A stretch of 64,000 bases of DNA. Source: Escherichia coli (lineage in GTDB: Bacteria > Pseudomonadota > Gammaproteobacteria > Enterobacterales > Enterobacteriaceae). Each line of letters starts with the position of its first letter. The stretch's first letter is position 1. Made by a program: the position numbers and the translations under genes. Of the stretch, positions 1,198 to 62,754 are shown one piece after another. Below the pieces are notes generated by a model, which saw only the letters and a list, made by a program, of their open reading frames with translations, ran no database searches and was not told the origin of the DNA. The DNA is taken from the NCBI RefSeq assembly GCF_024502345.1, contig NZ_JALDNN010000001.1, one strand, 5' to 3'.

Positions 1198-1278
1198 AAA
1201 TACTCCCGCTATCAACTGACGCTAGTATAACGGAAGCAAATCATCTGCAATGCATTAAGCAGCAGGCAAATTGAGGAT

Positions 1279-1340
1279 AAAAAAAACCCCCACATCATGT
1301 GGGGGAAGACAGGGATGGTGTCTATGGCAAGGAAAACAGG
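1279..1340 (-). ncRNA. cpxQ: cpxP 3'UTR with rho-independent terminator; expected position of 3'UTR-derived sRNA CpxQ
   Basis: GC hairpin ccccacatcatgtggggg flanked by A-run/T-run at 1279-1306 directly downstream of cpxP stop; CpxQ is known to be processed from the cpxP 3' end. Ends not determinable from sequence. Confidence 0.4.
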
Positions 1341-1345
1341 GTTTA

Positions 1346-1846
1346 CTACTGGGAACGTGAGTTGCTACTACTCAATAGCTTCAACGATGAACTTTTTTGC
1401 CATTGCGTCACGTCACGCAACTGCTCCATTCGTTGTTGATGTTTCTCGTTTAAAACCGCTTGCTGCTCCGGCGTTAACAGGCGATACATTTGGTTGCGGA
1501 CTTTTGCCATCTCAACCTGACGAGCAATTTGCTCATTCGCCATTTTTTCTGCCTGTGCGCGCACAGCGTTTTCATCAAAATTTTCTGCGGTGACAAGGCG
1601 ATGCATTGTCTCCAGTTCGCTAACATTAACAGGAGGCTGTTCGTGCCGGGCCTGTTGCATAAGATCTCGCATCTGCTGACGCTGATGTTCGGTTAAACTT
1701 ATGCCGTCGAACATATGGCTCTGCGTACTGCGCTGCGTAAGTTCTTCACCCGGATGCCAGTTATCGCCTGAACCGACTTCAGCAGCGTGGCTTAATGAAC
1801 TGACTGCCAGCGTTGAGGCCATGACGGCAGCGGTAACTATGCGCAT
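1346..1846 (-). CDS. cpxP: Periplasmic Cpx-pathway inhibitor/adaptor CpxP, 166 aa
   Basis: ORF 1346..1849 ([18 protein letters not shown]...); recognised CpxP starts at second Met. Divergent from cpxR. Confidence 0.9.
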
Positions 1847-1925
1847 CATTTGCTCCCAAAATCTTTCTGTCGCGATTCAACGATAGAGAGTTTACGATTC
1901 AGGCTGCAAACATGCGTCAGGGGGT

Positions 1926-4074: not shown

Positions 4075-4156
4075 TGTAGGCAGGATAAGGCGTTTACGCC
4101 GCATCCGGCATTTGAGCAGGATGCCTGATGCGACGCTGATAGCGTCTTATCAGGCC
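4075..4156. repeat. REP/BIME palindromic element
   Basis: Paired inverted REP-like units (ggataaggcgtttacgccgcatccggca / gcctgatgcgacgc...cttatcaggcctac) between cpxA and yiiM. Confidence 0.7.
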
Positions 4157-12947: not shown

Positions 12948-13190
12948 TGCCGGATGCGGCACAAGTGCCTTATCCGGCCTACAGGTCGGCAACAGTTTTA
13001 GGCCTGATAAGACGCGACATCGCATCAGGCATTGATTGCCGGATGCGGCACAAGTGCCTTATCCGGCCTACAGGTCGGCAATAGTTGTAGGCCTGATAAG
13101 ACGCGACAGCGTCGCATCAGGCATTGATTGCCGGATGCGGCACGAGCGCCTTATCCGGCCTACGGGTCGTGCATCCGACAACACCGAATT
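12948..13190. repeat. REP/BIME cluster, roughly 100-bp unit present in about 2.5 tandem copies
   Basis: Unit ccggatgcggcacaagtgccttatccggcctacaggtcggcaa...gtaggcctgataagacgcgac...gcatcaggcattgatt repeated between rhaA and rhaD. Confidence 0.75.
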
Positions 13191-23289: not shown

Positions 23290-26200
23290 ATGCAGGTCAG
23301 CAGAAGGCAGTTCTTTAAGATCTGCGCTGGCGGTATGGCAGGCACCACGGCAGCGGCACTGGGTTTTGCACCCAGCGTAGCACTCGCGGAAACTCGGCAG
23401 TATAAACTGCTGCGCACCCGCGAAACCCGTAATACCTGCACCTATTGTTCCGTAGGCTGTGGGCTGTTGATGTACAGCCTCGGTGACGGAGCAAAAAACG
23501 CCAAAGCATCTATCTTCCATATCGAAGGCGATCCGGATCACCCGGTCAACCGCGGTGCACTTTGTCCGAAAGGCGCTGGCCTGGTGGATTTCATCCACTC
23601 CGAAAGCCGTCTGAAGTTTCCGGAATACCGTGCGCCAGGTTCTGATAAATGGCAGCAAATCAGTTGGGAAGAGGCGTTTGATCGCATCGCCAAACTGATG
23701 AAAGAAGACCGCGATGCTAACTACATTGCGCAAAACGCCGAAGGCGTGACTGTTAACCGCTGGCTCTCCACCGGGATGCTGTGTGCTTCCGCGTCGAGTA
23801 ACGAAACCGGCTATTTAACGCAAAAATTCTCCCGCGCGCTGGGTATGCTCGCGGTCGACAACCAGGCGCGTGTCTGACACGGACCAACGGTAGCAAGTCT
23901 TGCTCCAACATTTGGTCGCGGTGCGATGACCAACCACTGGGTCGACATCAAGAACGCCAACCTCGTCGTGGTGATGGGCGGTAACGCCGCTGAAGCTCAC
24001 CCGGTCGGGTTCCGCTGGGCGATGGAAGCCAAAATTCACAACGGCGCGAAGCTGATTGTGATCGATCCTCGCTTTACGCGTACGGCGGCGGTAGCTGACT
24101 ACTATGCCCCTATTCGTTCCGGTACTGACATTGCTTTCCTGTCAGGCGTATTGCTGTACCTGCTGAACAATGAAAAATTCAACCGCGAATACACCGAAGC
24201 CTATACCAACGCCAGCCTGATAGTGCGTGAGGATTACGGCTTTGAAGATGGCCTGTTCACCGGCTACGACGCGGAAAAACGCAAGTACGATAAATCCTCC
24301 TGGACTTATGAACTGGACGAAAACGGCTTCGCCAAACGCGATACCACGCTGCAACATCCGCGCTGCGTGTGGAACTTGCTGAAACAGCACGTTTCCCGCT
24401 ACACGCCAGATGTGGTTGAAAACATCTGTGGTACGCCAAAAGACGCGTTCCTGAAAGTCTGCGAATACATCGCAGAAACCAGTGCTCACGATAAAACTGC
24501 CTCGTTCCTGTATGCCCTCGGCTGGACGCAACACTCCGTTGGTGCGCAAAACATTCGTACGATGGCGATGATCCAGCTGCTGCTCGGCAATATGGGGATG
24601 GCCGGCGGCGGCGTTAACGCCCTGCGCGGTCACTCCAATATTCAGGGGCTGACGGACCTGGGGCTACTGTCGCAGAGTCTGCCAGGTTACATGACGCTGC
24701 CAAGCGAGAAGCAGACCGATCTGCAAACCTACCTTACCGCCAACACGCCAAAACCGCTGCTGGAAGGCCAGGTAAACTACTGGGGCAACTACCCGAAATT
24801 CTTCGTCTCTATGATGAAGGCCTTCTTTGGTGATAAAGCGACGGCGGAAAATAGCTGGGGCTTTGACTGGTTGCCGAAGTGGGATAAAGGCTACGACGTC
24901 CTGCAATACTTCGAGATGATGAAAGAAGGCAAGGTCAATGGCTATATCTGCCAGGGCTTTAACCCTGTTGCCTCATTCCCGAACAAAAACAAAGTGATCG
25001 GTTGTCTGTCGAAACTGAAGTTCCTCGTCACCATCGACCCGCTGAACACTGAAACCTCTAACTTCTGGCAGAACCACGGTGAGCTGAACGAAGTTGACTC
25101 GTCGAAGATCCAGACCGAAGTGTTCCGTCTGCCATCGACCTGCTTCGCAGAAGAGAACGGTTCAATCGTTAACTCAGGTCGCTGGTTGCAGTGGCACTGG
25201 AAAGGTGCGGACGCCCCGGGGATTGCGCTGACTGACGGTGAGATCCTCTCCGGTATCTTCCTGCGCTTGCGCAAGATGTATGCCGAACAGGGTGGCGCGA
25301 ACCCGGATCAGGTGCTGAACATGACCTGGAACTACGCCATTCCGCATGAGCCGAAGTCGGAAGAAGTAGCGATGGAGAGCAACGGTAAGGCGCTGGCCGA
25401 TATTACCGATCCGGCAACCGGTGCGGTTATCGTCAAGAAAGGCCAACAACTTAGCTCGTTCGCCCAATTGCGCGATGACGGTACAACCTCCTGTGGCTGC
25501 TGGATTTTCGCCGGTAGCTGGACGCCGGAAGGCAACCAGATGGCGCGTCGTGATAACGCCGATCCGTCTGGCCTCGGTAACACGCTGGGCTGGGCATGGG
25601 CATGGCCGCTTAACCGCCGCATTCTGTATAACCGCGCCTCCGCAGATCCGCAGGGTAACCCGTGGGATCCGAAGCGTCAGTTGCTGAAATGGGACGGCAC
25701 TAAGTGGACCGGCTGGGATATTCCGGACTACAGCGCAGCGCCTCCGGATAGCGGCGTCGGGCCGTTTATCATGCAGCAGGAAGGCATGGGGCGTCTGTTT
25801 GCCCTCGATAAGATGGCGGAAGGTCCGTTCCCGGAACACTACGAGCCGTTTGAAACGCCGCTGGGAACTAACCCGCTGCATCCAAACGTTATCTCGAACC
25901 CGGCTGCACGTATCTTTAAAGACGACGCCGAAGCATTGGGTAAAGCCGATAAGTTCCCGTATGTCGGAACCACCTATCGTCTGACCGAGCACTTCCACTA
26001 CTGGACCAAACACGCGCTGTTGAACGCGATTTTGCAACCAGAGCAGTTTGTGGAAATCGGGGAGTCGCTGGCGAATAAACTTGGCATTGCCCAGGGCGAT
26101 ACCGTGAAAGTCTCCTCCAACCGTGGCTATATCAAAGCCAAAGCGGTGGTGACCAAACGTATTCGCACGCTGAAAGCGAACGGCAAAGATATCGATACCA

Positions 26201-28984: not shown

Positions 28985-29095
28985 GCGTAAGATTGCCTGA
29001 TGCGCTGCGCTTATCAGGCCTACCAATAAACTTCAATATATTGAATTTGCATGACTTTGTAGGCCTGATAAGGCGTTCACGCCGCATCCGGCATG
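28985..29095. repeat. REP/BIME palindromic element
   Basis: gcctgatgcgctgcgcttatcaggcctac ... gtaggcctgataaggcgttcacgccgcatccggca between fdhE and yiiF. Confidence 0.7.
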
Positions 29096-52213: not shown

Positions 52214-52379
52214 TGTTTAATCCTTTTGGTTTAAACCAGATGAAGCATCTTACGCTTACGCCAAAAAAGAAAGCAATTAACGGTGTATGACTTTGCAGAT
52301 AATTGTGACAAAGCTCTCTATTGACGTAATCCCAGACTTATAAGGGAGATACTCGCATTGGTGTGCGCTCACGACAGGT

Positions 52380-52412
52380 AAAAAAAAACCTGCCAGCGAT
52401 GGCAGGTTTTTT
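52380..52412 (-). terminator. Rho-independent terminator downstream of typA
   Basis: cctgccagcgatggcagg hairpin flanked by a 9-nt A-run and 6-nt T-run. Confidence 0.6.
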
Positions 52413-52429
52413 ATAACTAAAAAACGAAA

Positions 52430-54253
52430 TTAATCGTCTTTCGGTGCGCGGTTAGCGCGACGACGATCGTTTTCCGTCAGGTGACGTTTACGAATACGGA
52501 TAGAGGTCGGAGTCACTTCTACCAGTTCGTCATCATCGATGAACTCCAGAGCTTGTTCCAGAGTCATGCGGATAGGCGGAACCAGAACAACAGCTTCGTC
52601 AGTACCGGAAGCACGCATGTTGGTCAGTTTCTTACCGGTCAGGCAGTTTACAGTCAGGTCGTTAGAGCGGCTATGAATACCGATAATCTGACCTTCGTAA
52701 ACTTCTGCACCGTGACCGAGGAACAGCTTACCGCGATCCTGCAGACCGAACAGCGCGAACGCGACCGCTTTACCCTGACCGTTAGAGATCAGTACACCGT
52801 TCTGACGCTGACCCACTTCGCCCGGACGTACGTCGTCGTAGTGGCTGAAGGTGGAGTACAGCAGACCAGTACCGGAAGTCATGGTCATGAACTCAGAACG
52901 GAAGCCAATCAGACCACGGCTTGGGATCACGTAGTCGAGACGTACGCGGCCTTTACCGTCTGGATTCATGTTTTTCAGGTCGCCTTTACGTTCGCCCAGC
53001 GCCTGCATTACAGAACCCTGATGCTGTTCTTCAACGTCCAGAGTCACGTTTTCATATGGCTCTTGTTTACGACCGTCGATTTCACGGAAGATAACTTTCG
53101 GACGGGATACCGCCAGTTCGAAACCTTCACGACGCATGTTTTCGATCAGAACAGACAGGTGTAGTTCGCCACGACCAGAAACGCGGAACGCATCAGCGTC
53201 TTCGGTTTCTTCTACGCGCAGCGCAACGTTGTGTACCAGTTCTTTGTTCAGACGATCCAGGATCTGACGAGACGTTACGAACTTACCTTCTTTACCGCAG
53301 AACGGCGAGGTGTTAACGCAGAAGAACATAGAAACGGTCGGCTCATCAACGGAGAGTGCCGGCAGCGCTTCAACGTTTTGCGTGTCGCAAACGGTGTCAG
53401 AAATGTTCAGTTCGCCAAGGCCCGTGATCGCAACGATATCGCCAGCTTCCGCCAGATCGGTTTCGATACGTTCCAGACCGAGGTGGCCCAGCACTTTACC
53501 GACTTTCGCGTTGCGGGTTTTGCCTTCGCTATCGATGATAGTAACCTGCTGGTTCGGCTTCACTTTACCGCGCTTGATGCGGCCAATGCCGATAACGCCA
53601 ACATAGCTGTTGTAATCGAGCTGAGAAATCTGCATCTGGAACGGACCGTCAAGGTCAACGTCCGGCGCAGGAACGTGGTCAACAATCGCCTGGTACAGCG
53701 GGGTCATGTCTTCCGCCATATCTTCGTGGTCCAGACCCGCGATACCGTTCAGCGCAGAAGCGTAAACGATCGGGAAGTCCAGCTGCTCGTCGGTCGCGTC
53801 GAGGTTAACGAACAGATCGAATACCTGATCCACAACCCAATCAGGACGCGCGCCAGGGCGGTCAACTTTGTTGATAACAACAATCGGCTTCAGGCCGTAA
53901 GCAAACGCTTTTTTGGTTACGAAGCGCGTTTGCGGCATCGGGCCGTCAAATGCGTCAACCACCAGCAGCACTGAGTCTACCATGGACATTACACGTTCAA
54001 CTTCACCACCGAAGTCGGCGTGCCCCGGGGTATCAACGATGTTGATACGGTAATCATTCCATTTGATAGCGGTGTTTTTCGCGAGGATGGTAATCCCACG
54101 CTCTTTCTCCAAATCGTTGGAGTCCATCACGCGCTCTTGGGTTTCGGCACGAGAGTCGAACGTACCGGATTGTTGGAGCAGCTTGTCTACCAGGGTGGTT
54201 TTACCATGGTCTACGTGCGCGATGATGGCGATATTACGCAATTTTTCGATCAC
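52430..54253 (-). CDS. typA: Ribosome-associated translational GTPase TypA/BipA, 607 aa
   Basis: [35 protein letters not shown]... (G1 motif AHVDHGKTT). Confidence 0.95.
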
Positions 54254-54399
54254 AACTTTGCCTCAGGCATTAGAAATAGCGCGTTATTGTACACGGATTA
54301 ATCGCACTACAAAACAGGATCACAAACATCCTCCGCAAACAAGTATTGCAGAGTCCCTTTGTGATCGCTTTCACGGAGCATAAAAAGGGTTATCCAAAG

Positions 54400-54545
54400 G
54401 TCATTGCACCAATATAGTGCTTAATGTTTCCATTGAAGCACTATATTGGTGCAACATTCACATCGTGGTGCAGCCCTTTTGCACGATGGTGCGCATGATA
54501 ACGCCTTTTAGGGGCAATTTAAAAGTTGGCACAGTTTTCGCTTTA
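54400..54545 (+). promoter_or_regulatory. glnA control region: NtrC enhancer sites and sigma-54 promoter glnAp2
   Basis: NtrC-type dyads tgcaccaatatagtgc, gcactatattggtgca, gtggtgcag...tgcacgatggtgcgc; sigma-54 element ttggcacagttttcgct (GG at 54528-54529, GC at 54540-54541, N10 spacing). Confidence 0.75.
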
Positions 54546-54625: not shown

Positions 54626-56035
54626 ATGTCCGCTGAACACGTACTGACGATGCTGAACGAGCACGAAGTGAAGTTTGTTGATTTGCGCTTCACCGATACC
54701 AAAGGTAAAGAACAGCACGTCACTATCCCTGCTCATCAGGTGAATGCTGAATTCTTCGAAGAAGGCAAAATGTTTGACGGCTCCTCGATTGGCGGCTGGA
54801 AAGGCATTAACGAATCCGACATGGTGCTGATGCCAGACGCATCCACCGCAGTGATTGACCCGTTCTTCGCCGACTCCACCCTGATTATCCGTTGCGACAT
54901 CCTTGAACCTGGCACCCTGCAAGGCTATGACCGTGACCCGCGCTCCATCGCGAAGCGCGCTGAAGATTACCTGCGTTCTACTGGCATTGCCGACACCGTA
55001 CTGTTCGGGCCAGAACCTGAATTCTTCCTGTTCGATGACATCCGTTTCGGATCATCTATCTCCGGTTCTCATGTTGCTATCGACGATATCGAAGGCGCAT
55101 GGAACTCCTCCACCCAATATGAAGGTGGTAACAAAGGTCACCGTCCGGCAGTGAAAGGCGGTTACTTCCCGGTTCCGCCGGTAGACTCTGCTCAGGATAT
55201 TCGTTCTGAAATGTGTCTGGTGATGGAACAGATGGGTCTGGTGGTTGAAGCCCATCACCACGAAGTAGCGACTGCTGGTCAGAACGAAGTGGCTACCCGC
55301 TTCAATACCATGACCAAAAAAGCTGACGAAATTCAGATCTACAAATATGTTGTGCACAACGTAGCGCACCGCTTCGGTAAAACCGCGACCTTTATGCCAA
55401 AACCGATGTTCGGTGATAACGGCTCCGGTATGCACTGCCACATGTCTCTGTCTAAAAACGGCGTTAACCTGTTCGCAGGCGACAAATACGCAGGTCTGTC
55501 TGAGCAGGCGCTGTACTACATTGGCGGCGTAATCAAACACGCTAAAGCGATTAACGCCCTGGCAAACCCGACCACCAACTCTTATAAGCGTCTGGTCCCG
55601 GGCTACGAAGCACCGGTAATGCTGGCTTACTCTGCACGCAACCGTTCTGCGTCTATCCGTATTCCGGTGGTTTCTTCTCCGAAAGCGCGTCGTATCGAAG
55701 TGCGTTTCCCGGACCCGGCGGCTAACCCGTACCTGTGCTTTGCTGCCCTGCTGATGGCCGGTCTTGATGGCATCAAGAACAAGATCCATCCGGGCGAAGC
55801 CATGGACAAAAACCTGTATGACCTGCCGCCAGAAGAAGCGAAAGAGATCCCACAAGTTGCAGGCTCTCTGGAAGAAGCACTGAACGAGCTGGATCTGGAC
55901 CGCGAGTTCCTGAAAGCCGGTGGCGTGTTCACGGATGAAGCGATCGATGCGTACATCGCTCTGCGTCGCGAAGAAGATGACCGCGTGCGTATGACTCCGC
56001 ATCCGGTAGAGTTTGAGCTGTACTACAGCGTCTAA
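54626..56035 (+). CDS. glnA: Glutamine synthetase, 469 aa
   Basis: [42 protein letters not shown]...; adenylylation-site region NLYDLP. Confidence 0.97.
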
Positions 56036-56038
56036 TAG

Positions 56039-56121
56039 TTGAAGTTGTACTACCCGGCGCAACAACGCCGGGATTTAGTTGCCGTGGAAACTTTCAGCCC
56101 ATCTCTGCATGGGCTTTTTTC
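56039..56121 (+). ncRNA. glnZ: glnA 3'UTR with two hairpins and rho-independent terminator; expected position of 3'UTR-derived sRNA GlnZ
   Basis: Hairpins ccggcgc-aaca-acgccgg (56054-56071) and gcccat-ctctgc-atgggc followed by tttttt (56097-56120). The sRNA assignment is from literature, not sequence. Confidence 0.4.
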
Positions 56122-56159: not shown

Positions 56160-56190
56160 AAAAGCTATAATGCACTAAAATGGTGCAACC
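56160..56190 (+). promoter_or_regulatory. glnL promoter with overlapping NtrC site
   Basis: -10-like tataat followed by NtrC-type dyad gcactaaaatggtgca just upstream of glnL. Confidence 0.5.
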
Positions 56191-56208: not shown

Positions 56209-57258
56209 ATGGCAACAGGCACGCAGCCCGATGCTGGGCAGATCCTCAACTCGCTGATTAACAGTATTTTGTTAATCGATGACAACCTGGCGATCCATTA
56301 CGCCAACCCCGCCGCGCAACAACTGCTCGCCCAAAGCTCCCGCAAATTGTTTGGTACGCCGTTACCGGAACTGTTGAGCTACTTCTCATTAAATATTGAG
56401 CTGATGCAAGAAAGTCTGGAGGCGGGGCAAGGTTTTACCGATAACGAAGTGACGCTGGTGATCGACGGTCGCTCGCATATCCTTTCTGTGACGGCCCAGC
56501 GTATGCCGGACGGCATGATCCTGCTGGAGATGGCGCCGATGGATAACCAGCGCCGCTTAAGTCAGGAACAGCTACAGCACGCCCAGCAGGTTGCTGCCCG
56601 TGATTTAGTGCGCGGCCTGGCACATGAGATTAAAAATCCGCTTGGCGGTTTACGTGGCGCGGCGCAGCTACTCAGCAAAGCATTACCTGACCCGTCACTA
56701 CTGGAATATACCAAAGTGATTATCGAACAGGCGGACCGGCTGCGAAATCTGGTCGACCGTCTGTTGGGGCCGCAGCTGCCCGGTACGCGCGTGACCGAAA
56801 GTATTCACAAAGTAGCTGAACGCGTGGTAACGCTGGTGTCGATGGAACTGCCGGACAACGTGCGGTTGATTCGTGATTACGATCCCAGCCTGCCGGAACT
56901 GGCGCACGACCCGGATCAAATTGAACAGGTCTTGCTGAATATTGTGCGCAATGCGCTACAGGCGCTGGGGCCGGAGGGTGGTGAAATCATTCTGCGTACC
57001 CGCACCGCGTTTCAACTGACCTTACACGGCGAGCGCTACCGGCTGGCGGCGCGGATTGATGTGGAAGATAACGGGCCAGGCATTCCGCCTCATTTGCAGG
57101 ATACGCTGTTTTACCCGATGGTCAGCGGCCGCGAAGGTGGCACCGGGCTTGGCTTATCCATCGCTCGTAATTTGATTGATCAGCATTCAGGCAAAATTGA
57201 ATTTACCAGTTGGCCAGGGCATACCGAGTTCTCGGTTTACCTGCCTATCAGGAAATAA
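56209..57258 (+). CDS. glnL: Nitrogen-regulation sensor kinase NtrB, 349 aa
   Basis: [40 protein letters not shown]... (PAS + H-box HEIKNPL). Confidence 0.95.
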
Positions 57259-61159: not shown

Positions 61160-61228
61160 AATGGTTCGTCTTTTAGCCGTTTTATTCAGTATAGATTTGC
61201 GGCGGAATCTAACAGAAAGCAAGCAAAG

Positions 61229-61470
61229 AAAAAAGGCGACAGATTACTCTGTCGCCTTTTTTCCTGACTCATAACCCTTAACGGGTCTTACAATCCTTGC
61301 AGGCCGCCAACACACCCTGTTTTTCCATTAGCCGGAACAATCCGTGTTGATTCCATTTCCGTTTAATTACGTCTCCGGACGTTTGTCTTCCTGACAATCC
61401 TCTGTCTTCGCCTCCTGGCGCTCCTGACCCTCATCCTGAGTCATTGTTCCTGTTAGCGTCCTCGCTCTAT
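61229..61470 (-). ncRNA. csrC: CsrA-sequestering sRNA CsrC
   Basis: Minus strand carries many GGA motifs in short hairpin contexts (caggatgagggtcaggagcgccaggaggcgaagacagaggattgtcaggaaga...) and ends in a GC hairpin plus U-run (plus-strand aaaaaaggcgacagattactctgtcgcctttttt); location between yihI and engB as in K-12. Ends approximate. Confidence 0.75.
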
Positions 61471-62496: not shown

Positions 62497-62607
62497 AATA
62501 AAAAACGCCCCAGTCATTACTGACTGGGGCGGCTAAAATATTCAGCCAAATCCGATTACGTGAAGTAAAAGGTCTGAAAGATAGAACATCTTACCTCTGT
62601 ACCCTAC
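62497..62607 (-). ncRNA. spf: Spot 42 sRNA
   Basis: Reverse complement reads gtagggtacagaggtaagatgttctatctttcagaccttttacttcacgtaatcggatttggctgaatattttagccgccccagtcagtaatgactggggcgttttttatt, the Spot 42 sequence with its terminator. Confidence 0.88.
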
Positions 62608-62754
62608 GCGACTAACTTTACTCTTTTTTGTTCAGTTCAGAAAGCACTTTTTGTAATTTTTTTTCAGTTGTTGCATAGGAATTTCTAATAGCCATCACAA
62701 AACGTGACAGCTTATGTTGCTTACTTACGAAAAAAGGGCATGTTCAGGCGAATC

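Follow-up and report, generated by a model that had tools for sequence, protein, structure and literature searches.

Do the 3' untranslated regions (3'UTRs) of cpxP and glnA in this E. coli contig encode the small RNAs (sRNAs) CpxQ and GlnZ, and in which form? A first-pass annotation had expected 3'UTR-derived sRNAs at both genes, and the K-12 RefSeq annotates cpxQ (b4716) and glnZ (b4836) at the homologous positions. We examined the whole 64,000-nt stretch of DNA (the window) and are confident that the two sites are these known, Hfq-dependent sRNAs, made and acting as described in the literature.

CpxQ and GlnZ past the stops of cpxP and glnA

The genes of the window run pfkA-fieF-cpxP / cpxRA ... 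bipA-glnALG ... CsrC-Spot 42, with the K-12 orientation reversed. The cpxR-cpxP-fieF stretch is 99.8 per cent identical to K-12, and positions 1-30000 are 97.9-98.9 per cent identical to O157:H7. Among 5,426 complete E. coli genomes, none exceeds 98.4 per cent identity to the window over 25 kb, and the best matches over 25-30 kb stand at 98-99 per cent. The window thus belongs to an E. coli/Shigella-group lineage that has no near relative among these complete genomes. The cpxP open reading frame (ORF) agrees with cpxP as annotated in 5,425 E. coli genomes and ends in TAG (1346-1348) with an in-frame TAA directly after it. Matching E. coli genomes annotate glnA as such, and the glnL ORF starts at 56209, 3' of GlnZ on the glnA strand. 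The features on which the argument draws are as follows.

1279-1336, minus strand: CpxQ sRNA, 58 nt; 57/58 identity to ncRNA cpxQ b4716 (NC_000913.3)
1306-1336, minus strand: CpxQ nt 1-31, UUUUCCUUGCCAUAGACACCAUCCCUGUCUU, the target-pairing part; from conservation across Enterobacterales
1279-1305, minus strand: CpxQ Rho-independent terminator (Hfq-binding module); terminator scan and folding
1335-1339, minus strand: match to the RNase E consensus RN↓WUU, putative cut 1336/1335; motif scan
1346-1849, minus strand: cpxP coding sequence, 167 aa from the listed ATG; ORF list
1926-1940, no strand assigned: CpxR box GTAAA-N5-GTAAA in the cpxP-cpxR intergenic region, cpxRA adjacent; motif search
54527-54542, plus strand: sigma-54-type element TGGCAC-N5-TCGCT (glnAp2), 5' of glnA; motif search
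54626-56035, plus strand: glnA coding sequence, 469 aa, stop TAA at 56033-56035; ORF list
56036-56120, plus strand: GlnZ, O157-type / class I (= EsrF), 85 nt, the entire glnA 3'UTR; 100 per cent identity to O157:H7
56053-56072, plus strand: upstream 7-bp all-G:C hairpin of the glnA 3'UTR; terminator scan and folding
56074-56094, plus strand: 21-nt block UUUAGUUGCCGUGGAAACUUU common to K-12 GlnZ (K-12 nt 2-22); exact shared substring
56079-56090, plus strand: GlnZ seed core UUGCCGUGGAAA, inside the 21-nt block; exact match to the seed of PMC9731577
56096-56120, plus strand: GlnZ Rho-independent terminator; 25/25 identity to the K-12 glnZ 3' end

On the minus strand, nine nucleotides (TAAACCCTG) follow the cpxP stop before CpxQ begins (UUUUCCUUGCCAUAGACACCAUCCCUGUCUUCCCCCACAUGAUGUGGGGGUUUUUUUU, read from 1336 to 1279), and the 58-nt K-12 cpxQ likewise starts 9 nt past cpxP. 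The two genes have in common their locus in the cpxP 3'UTR, their length, the context of the 5' end, the terminator and the U8 tail. They differ in a single base, C42A (window position 1295), inside the 3-nt terminator loop. The A found here is the commoner variant among complete E. coli genomes: an 83-nt query spanning CpxQ (1270-1352) has a 100 per cent identical match in 4,105 of 5,426, and 1,319 further genomes differ from it by about one base. Folding of the 58-mer gives two elements, a small 5-bp hairpin (nt 14-30, within the target-pairing part) and the terminator, with a free energy of -17.4 kcal/mol (z = -2.7 against shuffles). The terminator consists of an 8-bp G+C-rich hairpin at 1287-1305, closed by the 3-nt loop, and of U8 at 1279-1286. 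Our numbering of CpxQ agrees with that of the cfa-pairing tests in which C5, C6 and U7 were mutated (C5G/C6G/U7A; 10.1101/271551); further published work on CpxQ is found in PMC4817254 and PMC9438474. The first-pass annotation had given CpxQ as 1279-1340, which is the right site but extends 4 nt too far 5' and lacks the strand.

Three kinds of glnA 3'UTR have been described in E. coli, a K-12-type of 197 nt, an O157-type of 85 nt and an O111-type of 230 nt (PMC9731577), of which the K-12-type and O157-type correspond to the class III and class I architectures (10.1101/2022.04.01.486790). Judged by its sequence, the window carries GlnZ in the short form, O157-type / class I (EsrF), and not in that of K-12. 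The published 85-nt EsrF runs from the T adjoining the glnA stop to a T of the terminator T-run (PMC8092317), and the ends in the window are the same. All 85 nt are identical to O157:H7, as they are to numerous further E. coli genomes, the seed lying directly 5' of the terminator in both, whereas the host chromosome is not that of O157:H7 (98-99 per cent identity over 30 kb). With K-12 glnZ (b4836, 194 nt, class III) the window shares the parental gene, the RNase E motif at the end of glnA, the seed block and the terminator, and exact sharing within the RNA is limited to the 21-nt block and the 25-nt terminator. In the K-12 RNA, however, the seed sits at the 5' end and is followed by a large REP-derived stem-loop, an RNase III substrate. 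That architecture is absent from the window, where the RNA lacks the insertion, has a different G:C hairpin 5' of the seed, and is 85 nt long rather than 194. A global MAFFT alignment to the K-12 glnA 3'UTR misplaced the seed, as the block is at opposite ends of the two RNAs, and an exact shared-substring search fixed the placement.

The 85-nt RNA folds at -28.3 kcal/mol (z = -2.3 against shuffles), and the stretch between its two hairpins (AUUUAGUUGCCGUGGAAACUUUC) is single-stranded in the fold. The terminator comprises a 7-bp hairpin at 56096-56115 and a run of six U at 56115-56120. An interval of 56039-56121 had been proposed for GlnZ, which is essentially right, although its ends are off by 3 nt and 1 nt. 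Just past the terminator, in the glnA-glnL spacer, an NtrC-type palindrome (TGCACTAAAATGGTGCA, 56171-56187, plus strand) overlaps a TATAAT box; we take it to be the expected glnL promoter/operator.

The structured 3'UTRs and intrinsic terminators that the first-pass annotation had described are thus borne out at both genes, where terminator scan and folding find the hairpins and U-runs. Nor do the seed regions, whose divergence it had named as the evidence that would count against its proposal, diverge from the published RNAs: the one change in CpxQ falls in the loop, and the GlnZ seed is exact.

Conservation and alleles of the two RNAs

To follow CpxQ beyond E. coli, species-representative genomes were scanned with the pattern CCTTGCCA-N6-12-TCCCTGTCT. 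As 17 of the 31 seed positions are fixed by it, species with diverged CpxQ seeds would be missed. The scan returned 120 loci. Sixty-nine of these lie directly past a cpxP homologue with a U-run after them, while about fifty were dropped as chance matches in unrelated taxa, without cpxP and without a U-run. The cpxP-linked loci come from the genera Citrobacter, Enterobacter, Klebsiella, Yersinia, Pantoea, Erwinia, Dickeya, Pectobacterium, Edwardsiella, Proteus, Morganella, Photorhabdus, Xenorhabdus, and Arsenophonus.

CpxQ nt 1-31 are the same as in the window in 65 of the 69 cpxP-linked Enterobacterales loci, and the fourteen positions that the pattern leaves free are 99.7 per cent identical (65 scorable loci). 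Across the same loci the identity of the CpxP protein drops to 35-45 per cent by tblastn, the measure used here because indels make the ungapped identity between the cpxP 3' coding end and the window (about 0.30) too low. The terminator shows the opposite pattern, with a hairpin of 6 bp or more and six or more U in all 35 distinct homologues, built from 33 different hairpin sequences (per-sequence folding). RNAalifold on a MAFFT alignment of the 35 homologues missed the terminator, the unequal hairpins being misaligned, and gave no covariation; per-sequence folding replaced it. Read from these sequences, the pattern is that of a sequence-selected pairing region joined to a structure-only terminator. 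It has been reported that CpxQ is conserved better than cpxP itself (PMC9438474), and our scan reproduces this.

Among E. coli genomes, the K-12-type glnA 3'UTR is found in 1,571 and the O111-type insertion in roughly 1,000-1,140. The remaining roughly 2,700-2,850 of 5,422 genomes (about half) carry the short type, and the window therefore has the commonest allele. The three architectures differ by insertions, and the seed and terminator are kept in all of them. The O111-type seed region is one C shorter (GGAAAUUUC vs GGAAACUUUC). The 145-nt O111-type insertion (E. coli 14EC029, 222-366 of the glnA 3'UTR stretch) is present in at most two copies per genome, and its best match is merely 80-90 per cent identical in 285 genomes.

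We also searched the window against RNA family models. At the gathering threshold, Rfam 15 places no family at either sRNA site anywhere in a scan of the whole window, and it holds no CpxQ or GlnZ family. A permissive scan gave one match at each site, both below the gathering score. Hrs1 (RF02628, Erwinia) aligns at 1279-1351 on the plus strand, opposite cpxP, and scores 44.5 bits where the threshold is 56.4. The name stands for 'Hfq-regulated sRNA 1' of Erwinia, and the model opens with an A-run and then a hairpin; its consensus looks like the reverse complement of CpxQ, as if it had been entered so. Ysr49 (RF02766, Yersinia sRNA 49) aligns at 56016-56120 on the plus strand with 34.1 bits against a threshold of 95, covering the end of glnA, the GlnZ seed and the terminator; it probably corresponds to GlnZ of Yersinia, named differently. 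Hrs1 and Ysr49 look like the same sRNAs as CpxQ and GlnZ. For GlnZ, the survival of seed and terminator in three architectures together with the Ysr49 alignment is evidence of conservation.

Elsewhere in the window, the ES222 model matches at 54335-54442 (minus strand, 129.9 bits), in the bipA-glnA intergenic region and antisense to the region 5' of the glnA promoter. CsrC (61217-61470, minus strand, 277.9 bits) and Spot 42 (62499-62617, minus strand, 122.8 bits) are both full length. Other matches at gathering score are a SECIS element (formate dehydrogenase gene), three of naRNA4/REP-type, STnc370 and ES036, with coordinates 23872-23930 (plus), 4079-4156 (plus), 13001-13160 (minus), 52377-52445 (minus), and 29016-29058 (minus).

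The cpxQ site in P2-like phages

WPhi-type P2-like phages have an attP core that is 100 per cent identical to window positions 1276-1322 (minus strand), a segment that covers CpxQ nt 15-58 (the 3' 44 nt) and three further nucleotides. Sixty-two P2-like phage records carry it, among them the att region of Peduovirus WPhi, and in a circular 32-kb element it adjoins the integrase gene. Strain EcPF15 has a P2-like prophage, with integrase, repressor and Cox, that begins directly past cpxP. The cpxQ-fieF junction is interrupted in about 836 of 5,426 E. coli genomes, with 674 extra partial copies, and a prophage or other interruption is present at the cpxQ site in roughly 12-15 per cent of complete E. 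coli genomes. In the window this attB is unoccupied. Since 'cpxP-fieF: Wphi1 (P2)' is listed beside the rybB and cyaR sRNA sites among P2-like integration sites (PMC3032704), the integration site was already known. No phage copy of the GlnZ region came up when one was looked for.

Proposed biogenesis and competing readings

The CpxR box between cpxP and cpxR is the expected driver of cpxP and CpxQ transcription, given the Cpx regulon. CpxQ would then be the tail of the CpxR-activated cpxP mRNA, cut by RNase E a few nucleotides past the stop and stabilised by Hfq on the terminator and U-tail. The RN↓WUU match at 1335-1339 is the only one in the cpxP 3' region outside the terminator, and it misses the annotated CpxQ 5' end by 1 nt. 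The 5' 31 nt would pair with mRNAs such as nhaB, skp and cfa, whose genes are located outside the window, and so lower envelope protein synthesis under inner-membrane stress.

GlnZ, in turn, would be the tail of the glnA mRNA induced by NtrC and sigma-54, with the NtrC dependence of glnAp2 taken from the literature. Two RN↓WUU matches lie near it, one at 56011/56012 in the coding end of glnA and one at 56073/56074, immediately 5' of the seed. RNase E would free GlnZ as an 85-nt species and probably also as a 47-nt species, which is what the putative cut at 56073/56074 would leave, with the seed at its 5' end by analogy with the K-12 GlnZ 5' end (UUUUAGUUGCC). Placed just 5' of the terminator, the seed is predicted to repress sucA, glnP and aceE under nitrogen limitation. 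The O157-type RNA is reported to be induced in O157 when nitrogen is low and to repress glnP, sucA and aceE (10.1101/2022.04.01.486790, PMC9731577), with compensatory mutants shown for glnP (10.1101/2022.04.01.486790).

The first-pass annotation held that no sequence feature proves processing, and we agree: RNase E cleavage, Hfq binding and target regulation of both RNAs are here inferred from the literature and from sequence motifs. It had expected roughly 60 nt for CpxQ, where we expect about 58 nt, and 50-200 nt for GlnZ. Because GlnZ is the class I form, RNAs of about 85 and about 47 nt are expected, and not of up to 200.

Other origins of the 85-nt RNA have to be weighed. In class I lineages it might arise both from RNase E cleavage and from a weak, NtrC-modulated internal start, and have extra targets such as flhB, and, as a separate matter, CpxQ could be altered via phage attP; we think this unlikely. 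Unlikely, too, is the EsrF account, in which the RNA is a primary sRNA with its own promoter inside the glnA coding sequence, not a processing product of the glnA mRNA, and is repressed by NtrC, induced by high ammonium, and acts on flhB in favour of motility and virulence.

The case for an internal start was made by Jia et al., who described an 85-nt RNA with exactly the ends found in the window that resists a 5'-monophosphate-dependent exonuclease and is unaffected by deletion of the glnA promoter (PMC8092317). They also mapped an NtrC footprint on CACGGATGAAGCGATCGA (PMC8092317), a sequence present in the window at 55930, 106 nt upstream of 56036. Our scan, however, found no sigma-70-like promoter 5' of 56036 on the plus strand. 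The best hexamer pair there scores 7/12, a value equalled or beaten at 31.5 per cent of random window positions. Two later studies, moreover, found the O157 RNA to be induced by nitrogen limitation, like glnA (PMC9731577, 10.1101/2022.04.01.486790), and the same two reported, for the forms of K-12 and Salmonella, a release that depends on RNase E and Hfq.

A last reading, that both 3'UTRs are terminators and mRNA-stabilising hairpins only and that any short RNAs here are non-regulatory decay intermediates, draws on the modest fold z-scores (-2.3 to -2.7, with the opposite strand similar) and on terminator-like sites that are not enriched over shuffles (2 vs 5.2 expected in the cpxP-side scan, 7 vs 4.0 in the glnA-side scan), but it is very improbable because it leaves the invariant pairing regions unexplained: CpxQ nt 1-31 hold almost constant at their free positions while CpxP diverges and the hairpin sequence varies freely, the 21-nt GlnZ block is retained through three insertion architectures, and published compensatory mutations argue against it (10.1101/271551; 10.1101/2022.04.01.486790). 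For related strains, seed point mutations that spare termination yet derepress nhaB/skp or sucA/glnP reporters have been published. As the motif counts are not above shuffles, the significance of the two sites comes from their position directly past the stops and their identity to annotated sRNA genes.

Both sRNAs are already known, and identifying them here is an ordinary but correct annotation; it opens no new question about CpxQ or GlnZ, and its value is that of the correct annotation only. E. coli genome matches list only cpxP, glnA, glnL, or no features at these places, and automated pipelines miss the two RNAs in nearly all E. coli genomes. From the short class I form of GlnZ, experimenters can tell which RNA sizes to expect, and the REP stem that RNase III processes in K-12 plays no part in it. 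If lineage-specific targets of the flhB type are real, GlnZ would link nitrogen status to motility or virulence. If integration of a WPhi-type phage swaps CpxQ nt 15-58 for those of its attP, the terminator and part of the pairing region would be supplied by the phage in roughly 12-15 per cent of E. coli, and phage variants could in principle alter a stress sRNA.
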